DNA of 64,000 nucleotides from Nitrososphaerota archaeon. Its GTDB lineage: Archaea; Thermoproteota; Nitrososphaeria; Nitrososphaerales; Nitrosopumilaceae. The stretch spans positions 32,001 through 96,000 of the forward strand of contig JAGWFT010000002.1 of assembly GCA_028867755.1 (NCBI GenBank), read 5' to 3'. A model generated the notes under the pieces. It did not search any database. It was not told the DNA's origin and saw nothing but the letters and a program-made list of their open reading frames with translations. Shown piece by piece: positions 48,381-52,951 of the stretch (the stretch's first letter is position 1; each line of letters starts with the position of its first letter). The translations under genes were made by a program, and so were the position numbers.

Positions 48381-48722
48381 TTAGAGTGAAGACTCGCCGC
48401 GCTTTTTGGTTCCTACATCTATGGCGTCATCTACATTATAGATGAATATTTTGCCTTCTCCTGTCATACCAGTACTTGCATGAGATGTTATGGCATCAAC
48501 GACTTTGTCCACCATGTTATCATGTACTACAACATAGATGTTTACGTTCACATTAAAGGCAGATTGGAATCGTCCACCTCTCCCAGATGATACCATCTCT
48601 CTGGGTCTCTTTCCTCTACCTTTTGCTGTGAAATATGTGAAGCCACCGATGTCTAATTGTGTTAATGCAGTAAAGACTGGATCTAACTTGTCTTCTGGAA
48701 TTACAGCTTCTATTTTTTTCAT
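48381..48722 (-). CDS. glnB: Nitrogen regulatory protein P-II
   Basis: MKKIEAVI, KGRG T-loop, TGMTGEGKIF, GTKKRGE. Confidence 0.93.
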   Translation of the reverse strand: MKKIEAVIPEDKLDPVFTALTQLDIGGFTYFTAKGRGKRPREMVSSGRGGRFQSAFNVNVNIYVVVHDNMVDKVVDAITSHASTGMTGEGKIFIYNVDDAIDVGTKKRGESSL

Positions 48723-48794
48723 AGCTAGATTCATTGCAACTATGAAATGCTTTTATTAAAATTATTGCTTAGATGTATACTAAAGAAAGAATAA

Positions 48795-48836
48795 TATCAT
48801 AAAAAGACGATTTTGGGATAAAATACCTTTTATAGA
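48795..48836 (+). promoter_or_regulatory. Promoter copy 1 of the amt-type 42-bp element (upstream of Cas4-like gene)
   Basis: TATCATAAAAAGACGATTTTGGGATAAAATACCTTTTATAGA; 37/42 identical to 51382-51423; 22 nt to ATG. Confidence 0.85.
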
Positions 48837-48858
48837 TCAAAAACCGCTTTTTCAAAGA

Positions 48859-49605
48859 ATGACCGAATCTAAAATCAAGAAGGTTCGAATAGTAGAGAAA
48901 GTTCAAGAAAAACTCAAGCAGGGAATCGATAACTATAGAGCAGCAGGTGACGCAGCACCAAAATTTGATGTCTATGATGTGATCGAAGAAGTGTTTGCAG
49001 CAATTAATCCAACAATAGCTGACGAAGGTAAAGTAACAGTGGATGAGGTCAGCGGTTGTCTGCGAGCTTCATATCTGGACAGAAAAGATCCATCTGAAAA
49101 AACTCACAAACAGATGCTGTCAAAAATTATGCAAAAGAGTGCATTGAGCATTATGGAAAAACCCGTAGAGGGACAGCTTGATGCAGGCTCCGGCGTAAAA
49201 CTAGTTGGCAGAGCAGAAAGAGTTGAAGATGATGTAGCAATGGTGTTCAAGGCAGTCGAGGAATTACCAGAGATGCCATATCCAGAACACTTCATACAGC
49301 TAAATTCCTATCTGCACATGTTTGGAAAACCAGAAGGTGTAATCGTCTACTTCGACAAAGAAGGAAATGAAATGGAATTCCAAGTTCCAAGAAGTGACCG
49401 ACTCATGGGTGAAACCAAACGTAGAGCTCGTATATTGAACACATTGTTGAAAAACAATATTGCTCCTGCAATAGAACCATCCGAAAGATGTCTTAGTTGC
49501 CCACATAACGAAAAGTGTTACTATACATCTGAGGACAAACAAAAATGGGGCTTTTGGGCTCGTGGCAAATGGCGCGAACTTAAACCAAAAGACAACATCC
49601 TATAA
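48859..49605 (+). CDS. Solo Cas4-like Fe-S protein with degenerate nuclease site
   Basis: C67 plus C211xxC214x5C220; QxxxY (Q147-Y151) kept; motif II GRAE, motif III VFK; no cas genes or array nearby. Confidence 0.75.
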   Translation: MTESKIKKVRIVEKVQEKLKQGIDNYRAAGDAAPKFDVYDVIEEVFAAINPTIADEGKVTVDEVSGCLRASYLDRKDPSEKTHKQMLSKIMQKSALSIMEKPVEGQLDAGSGVKLVGRAERVEDDVAMVFKAVEELPEMPYPEHFIQLNSYLHMFGKPEGVIVYFDKEGNEMEFQVPRSDRLMGETKRRARILNTLLKNNIAPAIEPSERCLSCPHNEKCYYTSEDKQKWGFWARGKWRELKPKDNIL

Positions 49606-49720
49606 CTACACTTTTTTATTCTAATTTTTATTTTATGGAATGCCAATAACTGAATTTGATCTCTTATCCCTCTCTCATAAGATCTAATAGTACAAAGCAG
49701 AAATTATGTAATTCTGTAAA

Positions 49721-49945
49721 TCACTTCAATGTGTCTGAATTTTCTACATTTCTTAGGTAAACTTTAGTCTTGAATGGTTTTTGTGCGTCCTTGTGATGAT
49801 ACAAGATCTTGATGCCGTGCTCAAAAGGTACAATCTGAATAGAATCAGTTGGCTGTAATGAATTATCAGTCTCTCTTAGATATTCAACTAATTCTCTTTG
49901 TGGCATTTTAAGAATTTCTTCTATTTTTTTTCTGCTAGATTTCAA
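49721..49945 (-). CDS. Hypothetical protein (74 aa)
   Basis: ORF with TATA-like element upstream; TTG start. Confidence 0.6.
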   Translation of the reverse strand: MKSSRKKIEEILKMPQRELVEYLRETDNSLQPTDSIQIVPFEHGIKILYHHKDAQKPFKTKVYLRNVENSDTLK

Positions 49946-50063
49946 TATGTTCCGAATTCAATTCTGATATATAATGTGTCTTGATTTTGGTACTCATTGA
50001 TGATACTGTTGATACGGTGTCATGTTTACTGTTAAATATGCTAAATGATTTGAGACCTTTGAT

Positions 50064-50540
50064 ATGGTTGATAGCAAAATAGATTGGTTTGAAAATTTTC
50101 TAGGACTTGGGTATCATCTTTATGATGTCAGGCCAGTTTTACTTGTTCTTTTAGATGAAAGAAAGGAAATTGCTAATACTTGGAATAAGATTCTGAAATA
50201 TTTTCCAGACGATGAAATTAAAACAAGATTCATAGAAAGAGGATCTACCTATGAATTTGTTCTTTATTGTGAATCTCGTATATTGCAGACTACATGGGTT
50301 TTCCTAAAATCTCTTAACATGTCTGAGCATTACAAGCAGTTCAAAGAAGACTATGATGGTGCAGCTGTACTAAAACTAGCATTGTACATCAAAAAAAAGA
50401 AAGGTGACAACGAACTAGAGATATTCAAGTATCAAAAAAGACTAACAAATGTAAAATTTCTTACTGAACCAGAAGCAGAACAGGATTTCATACTGACAAG
50501 AGCTACTCAGAAGCTTCATGACAAGCCACATGATAATTAA
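50064..50540 (+). CDS. Hypothetical protein (158 aa)
   Basis: ORF with TTAAATA about 25 nt upstream. Confidence 0.75.
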   Translation: MVDSKIDWFENFLGLGYHLYDVRPVLLVLLDERKEIANTWNKILKYFPDDEIKTRFIERGSTYEFVLYCESRILQTTWVFLKSLNMSEHYKQFKEDYDGAAVLKLALYIKKKKGDNELEIFKYQKRLTNVKFLTEPEAEQDFILTRATQKLHDKPHDN

Positions 50541-50561
50541 AACCACGATAGATAGTGTATG

Positions 50562-51080
50562 CTACAAGTGTGATTTTATCAAATTTACCCATTCATCCCA
50601 ATCCAAGCTATAATACATCAGTGGCTGTCGTTGGGGATAATTTATCACGGCTCTTGTTATGGCAAATTCATACTTCTTTATCTTGTTTTTTTGGTCTTTG
50701 AATGTGATTCTAAGAAAGTTTACTTTTCTAGATGTGACGCTCTCAACATTTACTATGGAACTCAATGGAATCATCCAACTTTTAGAACTCTTTGATATGT
50801 CCTCGTCTAGATCTGCTTCAGAATAATGTGCAAGTTTTCCCACCCTTGCCTTGTCGTCACCAAAGTACTTCTCCCTCTCTTTAGGCGTGATATACAAATA
50901 ATGAGGGGCAAAAATTACATTCTTGTCTGTTAATGCAAGAACTCCTTCCTTACTTTTATGGAAAAAGCCTGCTAATCCAAGAGCTATTCCCCAAATCTTT
51001 GGAAGCGAAGCTATGATGTATTCTTCGTCTTCTAAATTAACTCTCATTGAAATAAGCAATACTGAAGATGGGTAAATCAA
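50562..51080 (-). CDS. Hypothetical protein, possible PH-like fold
   Basis: GVLALTDKNVIF...IPLSSIVNVE pattern; start may be 51047. Confidence 0.7.
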   Translation of the reverse strand: MIYPSSVLLISMRVNLEDEEYIIASLPKIWGIALGLAGFFHKSKEGVLALTDKNVIFAPHYLYITPKEREKYFGDDKARVGKLAHYSEADLDEDISKSSKSWMIPLSSIVNVESVTSRKVNFLRITFKDQKNKIKKYEFAITRAVINYPQRQPLMYYSLDWDEWVNLIKSHL

Positions 51081-51120
51081 TCTATCTTGCTATAGTGAAA
51101 TATTAAAAATAACGTGGATT

Positions 51121-51282
51121 TTATGGATGGCCTTCGCCTTCAAACGTCATTCCATAAGTTCCAGCATGTTTGCCTTCTTTGATTCTCTTGTATCGATACG
51201 CCCTTTCACCAAAGTAAATGGCAATCGTCATTCCAAGAGCAACTGCAGTTGCAATGAATATAGTTATGTCTGCTTCTGCCAT
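51121..51282 (-). CDS. 53-aa single-TM protein divergent from amt (absent from ORF track)
   Basis: MAEADITIFIATAVALGMTIAIYFGERAYRYKRIKEGKHAGTYGMTFEGEGHP; ATG..TAA, TM then basic cluster. Confidence 0.7.
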   Translation of the reverse strand: MAEADITIFIATAVALGMTIAIYFGERAYRYKRIKEGKHAGTYGMTFEGEGHP

Positions 51283-51381
51283 GGCAAAGATACTTGGTAG
51301 CTTGTATAATAATTTTCTTTAAGATTTTTTGAAATTTTATGATACCATAATTCGATCAAAAGTATCATATCTTCTGTATAG

Positions 51382-51423
51382 TATCATAAAAAAGAGTTTT
51401 TAGGATAAAATACCTTTTATAGA
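51382..51423 (+). promoter_or_regulatory. amt promoter (copy 2 of the 42-bp element)
   Basis: TATCATAAAAAAGAGTTTTTAGGATAAAATACCTTTTATAGA with TATA-like TTTTATAG; 22 nt to ATG. Confidence 0.85.
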
Positions 51424-51445
51424 CGAGAACCATCTCTACGAAAAG

Positions 51446-52951
51446 ATGTCGGAAACAATCTCGAGAATGCCATTACAGATATTATCTAAGCACAAATGGC
51501 CGCTCGTTTTTGCCTTGGCAGCTTTGGTCGTCACAGTGTCAGGATTCACTGCAATGCAAGACGCACAAGCACAATTTGGTCCAATTGGCAATCTTGCCAA
51601 TCCGCAAAAGACAAATGAAATTCACTGTGGTCAAGCAATGACCCCACCAGGAAATGGAACCTTTGGTGGTAGTGAAGCACCATGTATCGATACAGGAGAT
51701 ACAACTTTCATGTACGCAGCAGCTGTGTTCGTCATGATAATGACACCAGGTGGTGTCGGTTTCTTGTATGGTGGTGCCACACGAAGAAAACAAGCACTAA
51801 CAGTCATCTTACAGAATTTCATGGTCTACTCAATTGTGAGTGTTCAGTGGGTCGTTTGGGGTTATGCAATAATGTTTGGTCCATCTGCAGATCCATATGG
51901 TTTCATCGGAAACTTGGATTGGTTTGGACTGAATAATGTCTTTCATAATGCACCAGCTGACGTTTACGCACCAACAATTCCACACTTGGCCTATGTTATG
52001 TTCCAGCTCATGTTCGCTGCTATCACTCCTGCACTTGCAATCGCAGGATATGCTGATAGAGTCAAAATGAGTGCATTTCTGATTCATGTAGTTCTATGGA
52101 CTACATTTGTCTATGACTTTGTTGGACATGCAAACTGGTCACTTGGAAGTCAGGGCACTTCAGTAGGTTGGTTAGCAAAAATAGGGACAGAAGACTTTGC
52201 AGGTGGTACAGTCATCCACATCACATCAGGTTTTGCTGGATTAGCTGCCGCAATGTTCCTTGGACGTAGAATAGGTTATGGAAAAGCTCCATTTGAACCT
52301 CATTCAATTCCGCTAATTATCCTAGGAGCTACAATTCTTTGGTTTGGTTGGTTCGGTTTCAACCCAGGAAGTGCAGGATTTGCAGGGTTCCTTGAAACTC
52401 AGGCTTTCCAAAACACGAACGTGGCAACGGCTGTTGCGGCAATTTGGTGGCTGTTTCTATCTTGGGCTCACACAGGAAAAGCAAGTGCAATTGGCGCTTG
52501 TAACGGTGCAGTAGCTGGACTTGTAGCAATTACGCCAGCGTCAGGTTTCATTGGAACTTGGGCATCAATAATCGTAGGCTTTGCATGTGCAACTGTCTGC
52601 TTCTATTGTGTCTTAATCAAGAACCGGGCAAGAATAGACGATGCGTTGGATACATGGGGTGTCCACGGAATGGGTGGTGTTACTGGTGCACTCTTAACAG
52701 GTGCGTTCAGTGAAACACGTATCAATCCATACGGTCACAACGGACTATTCTTTGGAAACCCAATGCAGTTTGTAATCAACTGTGAAGGAGCAGGCTTTGG
52801 AGCCGCATGGTCATTTGGTATCACTTACATAATATGGAGAATACAAGATGCAATTTGGCCTGGCGGTGTAAGAGTCACACCAAAAGAAGAAGAGATAGGC
52901 TTAGACTTGTCACAAGTCGGAGAAAGAGCATACTCGCAATTTGCGGAGTAG
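51446..52951 (+). CDS. amt: Ammonium transporter (Amt) with N-terminal signal/extension
   Basis: FQLMFA, DFAGGTVIH, WFGWFGFNPGS, GVHG twin-His and Phe-gate residues. Confidence 0.97.
   Translation: MSETISRMPLQILSKHKWPLVFALAALVVTVSGFTAMQDAQAQFGPIGNLANPQKTNEIHCGQAMTPPGNGTFGGSEAPCIDTGDTTFMYAAAVFVMIMTPGGVGFLYGGATRRKQALTVILQNFMVYSIVSVQWVVWGYAIMFGPSADPYGFIGNLDWFGLNNVFHNAPADVYAPTIPHLAYVMFQLMFAAITPALAIAGYADRVKMSAFLIHVVLWTTFVYDFVGHANWSLGSQGTSVGWLAKIGTEDFAGGTVIHITSGFAGLAAAMFLGRRIGYGKAPFEPHSIPLIILGATILWFGWFGFNPGSAGFAGFLETQAFQNTNVATAVAAIWWLFLSWAHTGKASAIGACNGAVAGLVAITPASGFIGTWASIIVGFACATVCFYCVLIKNRARIDDALDTWGVHGMGGVTGALLTGAFSETRINPYGHNGLFFGNPMQFVINCEGAGFGAAWSFGITYIIWRIQDAIWPGGVRVTPKEEEIGLDLSQVGERAYSQFAE

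Follow-up and report, generated by a model that had tools for sequence, protein, structure and literature searches.

This work concerns a 45-nt promoter module that stands twice in a 64,000-nt stretch of the genome of Nitrosotalea, an ammonia-oxidising archaeon of soil (assembly GCA_028867755.1, contig JAGWFT010000002.1, positions 32,001 to 96,000; this whole stretch is called the window, and coordinates are those of the window). One copy lies before the ammonium-transporter gene amt and the other before the gene for a Cas4-like protein of 248 amino acids (aa). The genome is 1.64 Mb long, with 38% G+C, and is 99.95% complete. The genes of the locus were found in the order 171-aa open reading frame (ORF) (-), P-II (-), Cas4-like (+), 74-aa (-), 158-aa (+), 172-aa (-), 53-aa (-) and amt (+), and this order was kept in about 60 related public loci. 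The P-II gene is divergent from the Cas4-like gene and keeps its position in Nitrosotalea loci. A single Amt match was obtained in the whole genome, and amt is the sole ammonium-transporter gene found. The three principal genes and the two modules are as follows.

48381..48734, minus strand: P-II (GlnK/GlnB-like) gene, PF00543 with an E-value of 1e-21, the sole match in the genome
48792..48836, plus strand: promoter module of the Cas4-like gene, 45 nt, consensus TAaTATCATAAAAaaatnnTTTTAGGATAAAATACCTTTTATAGA, 66.0 bits
48859..49605, plus strand: gene for the Cas4-like PD-(D/E)XK iron-sulfur protein, 248 aa, with four invariant Cys and the ExK motif not conserved
51379..51423, plus strand: promoter module of amt, 45 nt, 67.6 bits
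51446..52951, plus strand: amt, 501 aa, PF00909 with an E-value of 3e-106 over profile positions 2-399 of 399

The twin promoter module

The initial annotation, made from the sequence alone, had described a near-identical 42-bp promoter shared by the two genes, and its measurements were reproduced. The sequences TATCATAAAAAGACGATTTTGGGATAAAATACCTTTTATAGA (48795-48836) and TATCATAAAAAAGAGTTTTTAGGATAAAATACCTTTTATAGA (51382-51423) are identical at 37/42 positions, the exact 21-mer GGATAAAATACCTTTTATAGA was found at 48816-48836 and 51403-51423, and the copies end 22 nt before the ATG at 48859 (the 248-aa ORF) and at 51446 (Amt), respectively. A repeat search extended the ungapped likeness to 77 nt (48791-48867 versus 51378-51454, 74% identity), reaching into the first codons; no other structured repeat was seen in that search.

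The 21-mer gave 2 matches in the window at up to 3 mismatches and 0 in 100 dinucleotide-preserving shuffles, and at the same threshold these two copies alone were found in the whole genome. At up to 5 mismatches extra weak matches appeared, which were scattered and none of which exceeded 8 bits on a 45-column matrix (maximum 72 bits) derived from 66 unique promoters of Nitrosotalea. When the 1.64-Mb genome was scanned with this matrix, amt scored 67.6 bits and the Cas4-like gene 66.0 bits, and all else stayed below 8 bits. A motif common upstream of unrelated genes had been named beforehand as an outcome that would count against a shared promoter; the genome held two sites only. One specific module common to both genes, as proposed, was thus recovered as two high-scoring sites in the same position, 22 nt ahead of their ATGs, with no comparable score in the rest of the genome. 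A wider regulon was searched for with the 21-mer at 5 mismatches, the matrix and a composite pattern that joined the distal box to TATA and ATG, and no sites beyond the known two were obtained; the composite scan returned one extra, probably chance match, and scrambled-box controls gave 1 in each of four.

The degenerate core ATAAAANANNNTTTATAG was then scanned in 151 genomes of the order. Within the Nitrosopumilaceae it matched only in Nitrosotalea and the genus g25, and in the large AT-rich genomes of Nitrososphaeraceae it was about as frequent as a reversed-pattern control. A third full copy was seen in one Nitrosotalea genome, in front of an unrelated ORF of 96 aa that is predicted to be a membrane or secreted protein and whose ATG follows after 22 nt (G010, contig C43, L016/L031; an unpublished genome, the publication of which needs the permission of the depositors).

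The core part of each promoter was read as follows.

48828..48835, plus strand: probable TATA box TTTTATAG of the Cas4-like gene, TTTATA starting at -30 from the ATG
48837..48858, plus strand: TATA-to-ATG interval of the Cas4-like gene, 22 nt, gene-specific, without a Shine-Dalgarno-like sequence
51415..51422, plus strand: probable TATA box TTTTATAG of amt, TTTATA starting at -30 from the ATG

For comparison, 1,195 ORFs of at least 150 aa were surveyed, each taken from its first ATG. Genome-wide, TTTAWA showed a sharp peak between positions -33 and -28 relative to the ATG; the highest count, 18, fell at -30, and the background was about 1.5 at each position. Both TTTATA elements stand exactly at this mode of -30 relative to the ATG, in agreement with the TATA assignment and the leaderless geometry proposed in the initial annotation. 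On reading of the sequence, no Shine-Dalgarno-like element was present in the 22-nt intervals of both promoters. The mRNAs of both genes should be leaderless, with the start expected at or beside the ATG. The same layout was described for amoA in ammonia-oxidising archaea, where TATA lies 23-24 nt upstream of the ATG and leaderless mRNA was inferred (Bartossek 2012, PMC3379541).

When 85 ordinary promoters of the genome were aligned on their TATA boxes, information was about zero at every upstream position. Since ordinary promoters are uninformative there, the approximately 35 conserved bases upstream of TATA in the module are neither a generic B recognition element (BRE) nor an effect of composition. 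A cis-regulatory RNA (riboswitch or leader) was rejected as an explanation of these bases, since the conserved part lies upstream of TATA and no Rfam match was found in the region at E-values up to 1. The upstream part comprises a block next to TATA and a dyad.

48816..48827, plus strand: proximal block GGATAAAATACC, abutting TATA at the BRE position, near-invariant in Nitrosotalea
48795..48820, plus strand: candidate factor-binding dyad TATCATAAAAA-GACG-ATTTTGGGATA of the Cas4-like gene, 8/11 complementary, centre at -51.5
51382..51407, plus strand: imperfect dyad TATCATAAAAA-AGAG-TTTTTAGGATA of amt, 10/11 complementary, centre at -51.5

The dyad, TATCATAAAAA-N4-TTTT(T)AGGATA, follows the best symmetry axis of the genus-wide motif and has its centre at -51.5 relative to both ATGs. 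In 59/79 unique promoters 9-10/11 positions of the arms pair; among random 26-mers from the genome, only 0.03% reached 9. Variation is confined to the middle spacer of 4-6 nt, and the arms are conserved. The initial annotation had placed the symmetry nearer to TATA, in a palindrome AGGAT-AAAA-TACCT. That sequence does occur, but pairing is limited to the outermost 3 bp (AGG/CCT); the palindrome was not among the six best axes and was dropped as the main symmetry in favour of the better dyad further upstream.

We consider it probable, judging from sequence comparison, that these elements form a composite promoter with an upstream factor site that drives amt and the Cas4-like gene together. In its core, the TATA box TTTTATAG would set the start at or next to the ATG and give leaderless mRNAs. 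The specific part would lie directly upstream and consist of the near-invariant GGATAAAATACC at the BRE position and the distal box TATCATAAAAA. A sequence-specific factor, most likely a dimeric transcription factor, would bind the dyad and the block and set the output of both promoters.

Two other ways of reading the same bases were weighed. An alternative general factor, that is a particular TFB, perhaps together with TBP, might read the specific part, in which case amt and the Cas4-like gene would represent a small promoter class. Four TFB paralogues are encoded in the genome, and the near-invariant block AAAATACC stands exactly at the BRE position; against this, the reach of a BRE is only about 6-7 bp above TATA while conservation here extends to -67 and carries dyad symmetry, and a TFB-specific class of two promoters would be unusual, so we hold this explanation to be improbable. 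The other possibility is a strong constitutive core promoter that needs no regulator, in which an extended BRE/TATA and phased, bending A/T tracts were copied once and stayed in both places because both products are required in a constant, high amount. Transcripts of amt rank among the most abundant in ammonia-oxidising archaea (Carini 2018, bioRxiv 10.1101/175141), the A/T tracts of the module recur every 9-10 bp or so, and the locus has no transcription-factor gene. Yet the conserved letters TATC, GGAT and TACC (1.5-2.2 bits) do not belong to the A/T tracts, a free spacer between arms is the pattern of a protein site and not of curvature, other strongly placed promoters of the genome share none of the module, and the third copy, in one species and from the unpublished genome, fronts an unrelated small gene. 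Such a constitutive promoter is possible, though we think it unlikely.

Conservation and copying of the two promoters

The pair of 21-mers was present in 16/22 genomes of the same genus, or 13/19 when the unpublished G010, G011 and G017 are left aside. The paired copies lie 2.5-3.3 kb apart on one strand, and in every case examined one copy is followed after 21-23 nt by the start codon of the Cas4-like orthologue, and its partner likewise by that of amt. In all, both copies with this spacing were seen in dozens of public Nitrosotalea genomes, and the locus of the cultured N. devanaterra (L092) has the module too. The Cas4-like orthologues share 76-95% amino-acid identity across Nitrosotalea (78% between the 248-aa protein and that of N. 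devanaterra LN890280). In 39 unique (Cas4-like) and 32 unique (amt) Nitrosotalea intergenic sequences the module columns were at least 90% conserved, and the amt alignment showed variable sequence immediately upstream of them. Against distant Nitrosotalea, the module of the genome analysed kept an identity of 0.87-0.89, compared with 0.53-0.61 at third codon positions and 0.70-0.80 in the TATA-to-ATG interval. The motif shared by the two genes is conserved above the neutral rate, with its arms kept and its spacer free. These alignments indicate that purifying selection acts on both copies in Nitrosotalea.

The initial annotation had offered a recent duplication of the promoter as an alternative to a regulon. 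Since purifying selection acts on both copies, this fails in Nitrosotalea: both copies are kept across species whose Cas4-like proteins are 76-95% identical, and they are no more alike within than between genomes (0.77 within versus 0.77 between in ungapped comparison; 0.80-0.93 at the same register). The TATA-to-ATG intervals of the Cas4-like gene and amt are about 0.42 identical in this genus.

A different picture was obtained in some sister lineages. In a metagenome-assembled genome (MAG) of Nitrosopumilaceae (L110) the two promoters share an identical run of 74 nt, and in a MAG of Nitrososphaeraceae (L114, the same locus as L038), where the genes are divergent, about 80-84 nt upstream are identical, including the first five codons. 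In L108 and L105-L109, lineage-specific variants are common to both promoters. These cases indicate that gene conversion re-homogenises the promoters in some sister lineages. Because of the identical tracts there, the module appears to have begun as a copied promoter and start region that is still being re-copied in some lineages. The history would then be an old duplication of promoter and start region, after which purifying selection kept the copies in Nitrosotalea and gene conversion made them uniform again in some sister lineages. The perfect tracts of 74-84 nt in L110 and L114/L038, which comprise promoter, interval and first codons, resemble ectopic gene conversion of dispersed paralogous segments; Nitrosotalea differs in that no excess similarity exists within genomes and the likeness is held by selection.

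It was also considered that the module might be a functionless tract, left by recent duplication or gene conversion or as the footprint of a repeat or mobile element. The perfect 74-84 nt tracts in sister lineages do prove copying between the sites. In Nitrosotalea, however, the copies are independently kept between species whose synonymous sites are saturated, each gene has its own sequence in the adjoining 22-nt interval, and each genome has two copies that always lie 21-23 nt before the same two ATGs; neither terminal repeats nor an Rfam match were seen. We regard a functionless tract as hardly credible. A relic of a mobile element or repeat in particular was rejected, since there are only two copies, whose spacing to the two genes does not change, and no terminal repeats.

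In Nitrosopumilus-type genera amt has a different conserved motif and the Cas4-like homologue has no similar upstream sequence, and a shared promoter was ruled out there, the upstream regions being not alike. The amt promoters of other Nitrosopumilaceae genera (L142-L162) carry approximately ATATAATAATTTACA and, after a gap of about 12-15 nt, CATCTCAATGCTTAAATAATTT ahead of the ATG, an arrangement that is conserved across genera.

The whole locus was also seen in MAGs of Nitrososphaeraceae, Nitrosopolaris and Nitrosomirales (L114/L038, L119, L121, L131, L115, L117). Compared with Nitrosotalea, these loci are 68-72% identical in the Cas4-like protein and 70-78% in Amt, and the other genera of Nitrosotalea's own family reach 30-37% and about 47-59%, respectively. 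Since distant soil lineages are closer in identity than genera of the same family, the comparison suggests that the locus was passed laterally between soil lineages.

The Cas4-like protein and the remaining genes

The 248-aa ORF gave no Pfam match. The cas4 model TIGR00372 aligned with an E-value of 7e-5 and 22.7 bits, below its cut-off of 65. The structure model (predicted local distance difference test (pLDDT) 74) found the Cas4 protein SSO0001 (4ic1) as the best PDB match in Foldseek, with an E-value of 5e-9 and template-modelling (TM) scores of 0.55/0.66. Residues C67, C211, C214 and C220, one N-terminal and three C-terminal Cys, are invariant in 28 aligned sequences, so that the protein has the fold and the four cysteines of Cas4. 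The catalytic D...ExK of Cas4 was not found: throughout the family F-(K/R/E) stands in the ExK column, and Glu replaces the Asp of motif II in the genome analysed. Association with cas1, cas2 or a CRISPR array was likewise not found, the neighbours being P-II, small conserved ORFs and amt. Thus the protein is like the Cas4 nucleases (SSO0001, 4ic1) in fold and four-Cys cluster, and unlike them in that ExK is not conserved and the gene does not lie beside cas genes. Two Cas1-family loci, of CRISPR-Cas or casposon type, were noted on a separate contig (C24, 274102-274941 and 439947-440906).

In every lineage with the 248-aa type, the Cas4-like gene lies beside amt, in tandem or divergent. Other Nitrosopumilaceae genera have a homologue of about 215 aa, 30-37% identical, which is divergent and within 7 kb of amt; this linkage was found in 15/17 of the other Nitrosopumilaceae genomes with comparable coordinates. 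The compared genomes indicate that the linkage of amt and the Cas4-like gene holds across ammonia-oxidising archaea. Stand-alone Cas4 and high-affinity Amt (HA-Amt) have been drawn as neighbours in Thaumarchaeota, with Cas4 read as virus-related (Wang 2019, PMC6863869). The Cas4/HA-Amt neighbourhood is the same here; where that paper deals with it, no shared promoter is noted, and the ATPase operon drawn there as flanking the locus is absent here, the upstream genes being housekeeping genes.

Could the Cas4-like protein itself be the factor? It would then be a nuclease-dead iron-sulfur DNA-binder on the dyad that controls amt and regulates its own gene. Local regulators that are auto-regulated often have their own operator; the four invariant Cys and the Cas4 fold are kept while a conserved ExK is lacking; the linkage to amt extends across ammonia-oxidising archaea, and the locus has no other candidate. 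On the other side, the Cas4 family is known for DNA-end nucleases and not for sequence-specific duplex binders, the Nitrosopumilus-type homologue is linked to amt but does not share the promoter, and a regulator normally needs no output equal to that of a top-expressed transporter. This role is quite improbable in our judgement. We also give little credence to the broader idea that the Cas4-like protein is a working part of ammonium acquisition and not a leftover of DNA repair or CRISPR, which in its boldest form would make the protein a factor or a redox or nitric oxide (NO) sensor on the dyad, controlling amt and itself.

The genes between the two modules and the one divergent from amt are listed together with a related box.

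49721..51282: four small ORFs between the twin promoters, 74 aa (minus strand), 158 aa (plus), 172 aa (minus) and 53 aa (minus)
51121-51282, minus strand: gene for a 53-aa membrane protein, divergent from amt
51335..51349, minus strand: distal TATCATAAAA box in inverted orientation, which serves the 53-aa gene divergent from amt

The four small ORFs stand in the same order in about 60 related loci, with 45-96% identity. No family was found for them with Pfam and NCBIfam, which were run on all neighbouring ORFs, and with ESM Atlas for the 158-aa ORF. The model of the 74-aa ORF (pLDDT 84) has two helices and three strands and gave no significant PDB match; this gene lies directly 3' of the Cas4-like gene even in the Nitrosopolaris and Nitrosomirales records.

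The inverted box at 51335-51349 forms an inverted repeat with 51377-51391 (93% complementary) and is conserved across Nitrosotalea in the amt intergenic alignment. Its distance to the TATA of the 53-aa gene (TTATTATA, 51305-51312) equals that in the module, and the promoter of the 53-aa gene has no GGATAAAATACC block. The distal box of amt is preceded, at a distance of 13 nt, by a further GTATCAT (51362-51368), which other Nitrosotalea do not conserve. An inverted repeat of 22 nt with 91% complementarity was seen between 48720-48741 in the start region of the P-II gene and 51247-51268 in the 5' coding part of the 53-aa gene; by a rough estimate about 0.02 chance matches are expected in the 3.4-kb stretch. 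Three Nitrosotalea genomes (G150, G003, G181) gave three Amt matches each versus one in the genome analysed. The extra pair consists of homologues, 43-46% identical, beside the promoter-bearing amt, and the extra amt copies of G003 had no 21-mer at up to 3 mismatches, in a scan that covered G003 among these three.

Possible regulators and meaning of the module

The initial annotation had stated that the sequence does not fit the NrpR operator, and this stood. The operator GGAA-N6-TTCC is absent from both modules, and the NrpR domain PF01995 gave no match in the 99.95%-complete genome, while the control found it in two methanogens. The NrpR operators of methanogen nitrogen genes share with the module a nitrogen-related target, amt, and a palindromic site near the promoter; they differ in sequence, and the site here lies upstream of TATA, not over or after it. 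Among other regulators, the genome has about 9 TrmB-type helix-turn-helix (HTH) genes and about 20 AsnC/RAM ORFs, none of which lie in the locus. The Thermococcales glycolytic motif TATCAC-N5-GTGATA is bound by TrmBL1/Tgr. Its half-sites TATCA(C/T)/...GATA are similar to those of the module, which together with the TrmB-type genes provides a lead only. About 14-16 nt lie between the hexamers here versus 5 in that motif, and organisms and targets are different.

In position, the module resembles archaeal upstream activating sites that lie just above BRE/TATA, such as those of Ptr2 in Methanocaldococcus jannaschii and TFB-RF1 in Pyrococcus furiosus. Common to them are a dyad or near-dyad directly upstream of BRE/TATA and a standard TATA. 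The module differs in its TATC/GATA half-sites with A/T runs and 4-nt spacer, and activation is suggested here by position. Lineage-specific conserved cis motifs were also proposed as regulator sites in the promoters of amoA/B/C/X (Bartossek 2012, PMC3379541), and a motif common to all amo genes was not found later (Hodgskiss 2023, PMC10030591). The amo promoters are alike in the position of TATA, the probable leaderless mRNAs and the presence of extra conserved motifs; they are unlike in the motifs themselves and in serving amo genes, whereas here one module serves amt and a non-metabolic gene. With the co-transcription of amtB-glnK in bacteria and archaea the locus shares a transporter with a dedicated partner, and the sole P-II gene lies in the same locus; it differs in that joint production would come from twin promoters instead of an operon and that the partner is Cas4-like, and P-II has its own, different promoter.

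Several points weigh against a composite promoter with a factor site. No transcription-factor gene was found in the locus by Pfam and NCBIfam on the neighbouring ORFs, and two genes make a small regulon for a factor of their own. In the more distant lineages Nitrosomirales and Nitrosopolaris, the right half of the site is poorly preserved. The dyad is largely an A-run facing a T-run, which comes cheaply in an AT-rich spacer, and its informative core is TATC/GATA only. Finally, conservation alone cannot tell a regulated site from a fixed high-output promoter.

A composite promoter with an upstream factor site nevertheless remains the explanation that we favour. The factor may help to recruit TFB/TBP and thereby activate both promoters; recruitment is favoured over repression, since the site lies upstream of BRE/TATA and amt is top-expressed in these archaea. 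The sole ammonium transporter and the Cas4-like iron-sulfur protein would consequently be made together, and the module may be linked to nitrogen status. In the literature searched, with most subscription journals outside reach, no amt promoter motif for these archaea, no 'Nmar_1698' and no regulator named for amt in ammonia-oxidising archaea were found.

Ammonia-oxidising archaea perform much of the nitrification in acid soils, and we know of no transcriptional regulator of nitrogen uptake identified in them. The module would provide a defined 45-bp bait, with TATC/GATA mutants as controls, for finding the factor, and its two genes would serve as natural reporters. The widespread and unexplained stand-alone Cas4-like protein, being tied to an ammonium transporter, would gain a testable physiological context. 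In addition, the locus offers a clean natural case of two dispersed promoters whose likeness is maintained in one lineage by selection and elsewhere by gene conversion.

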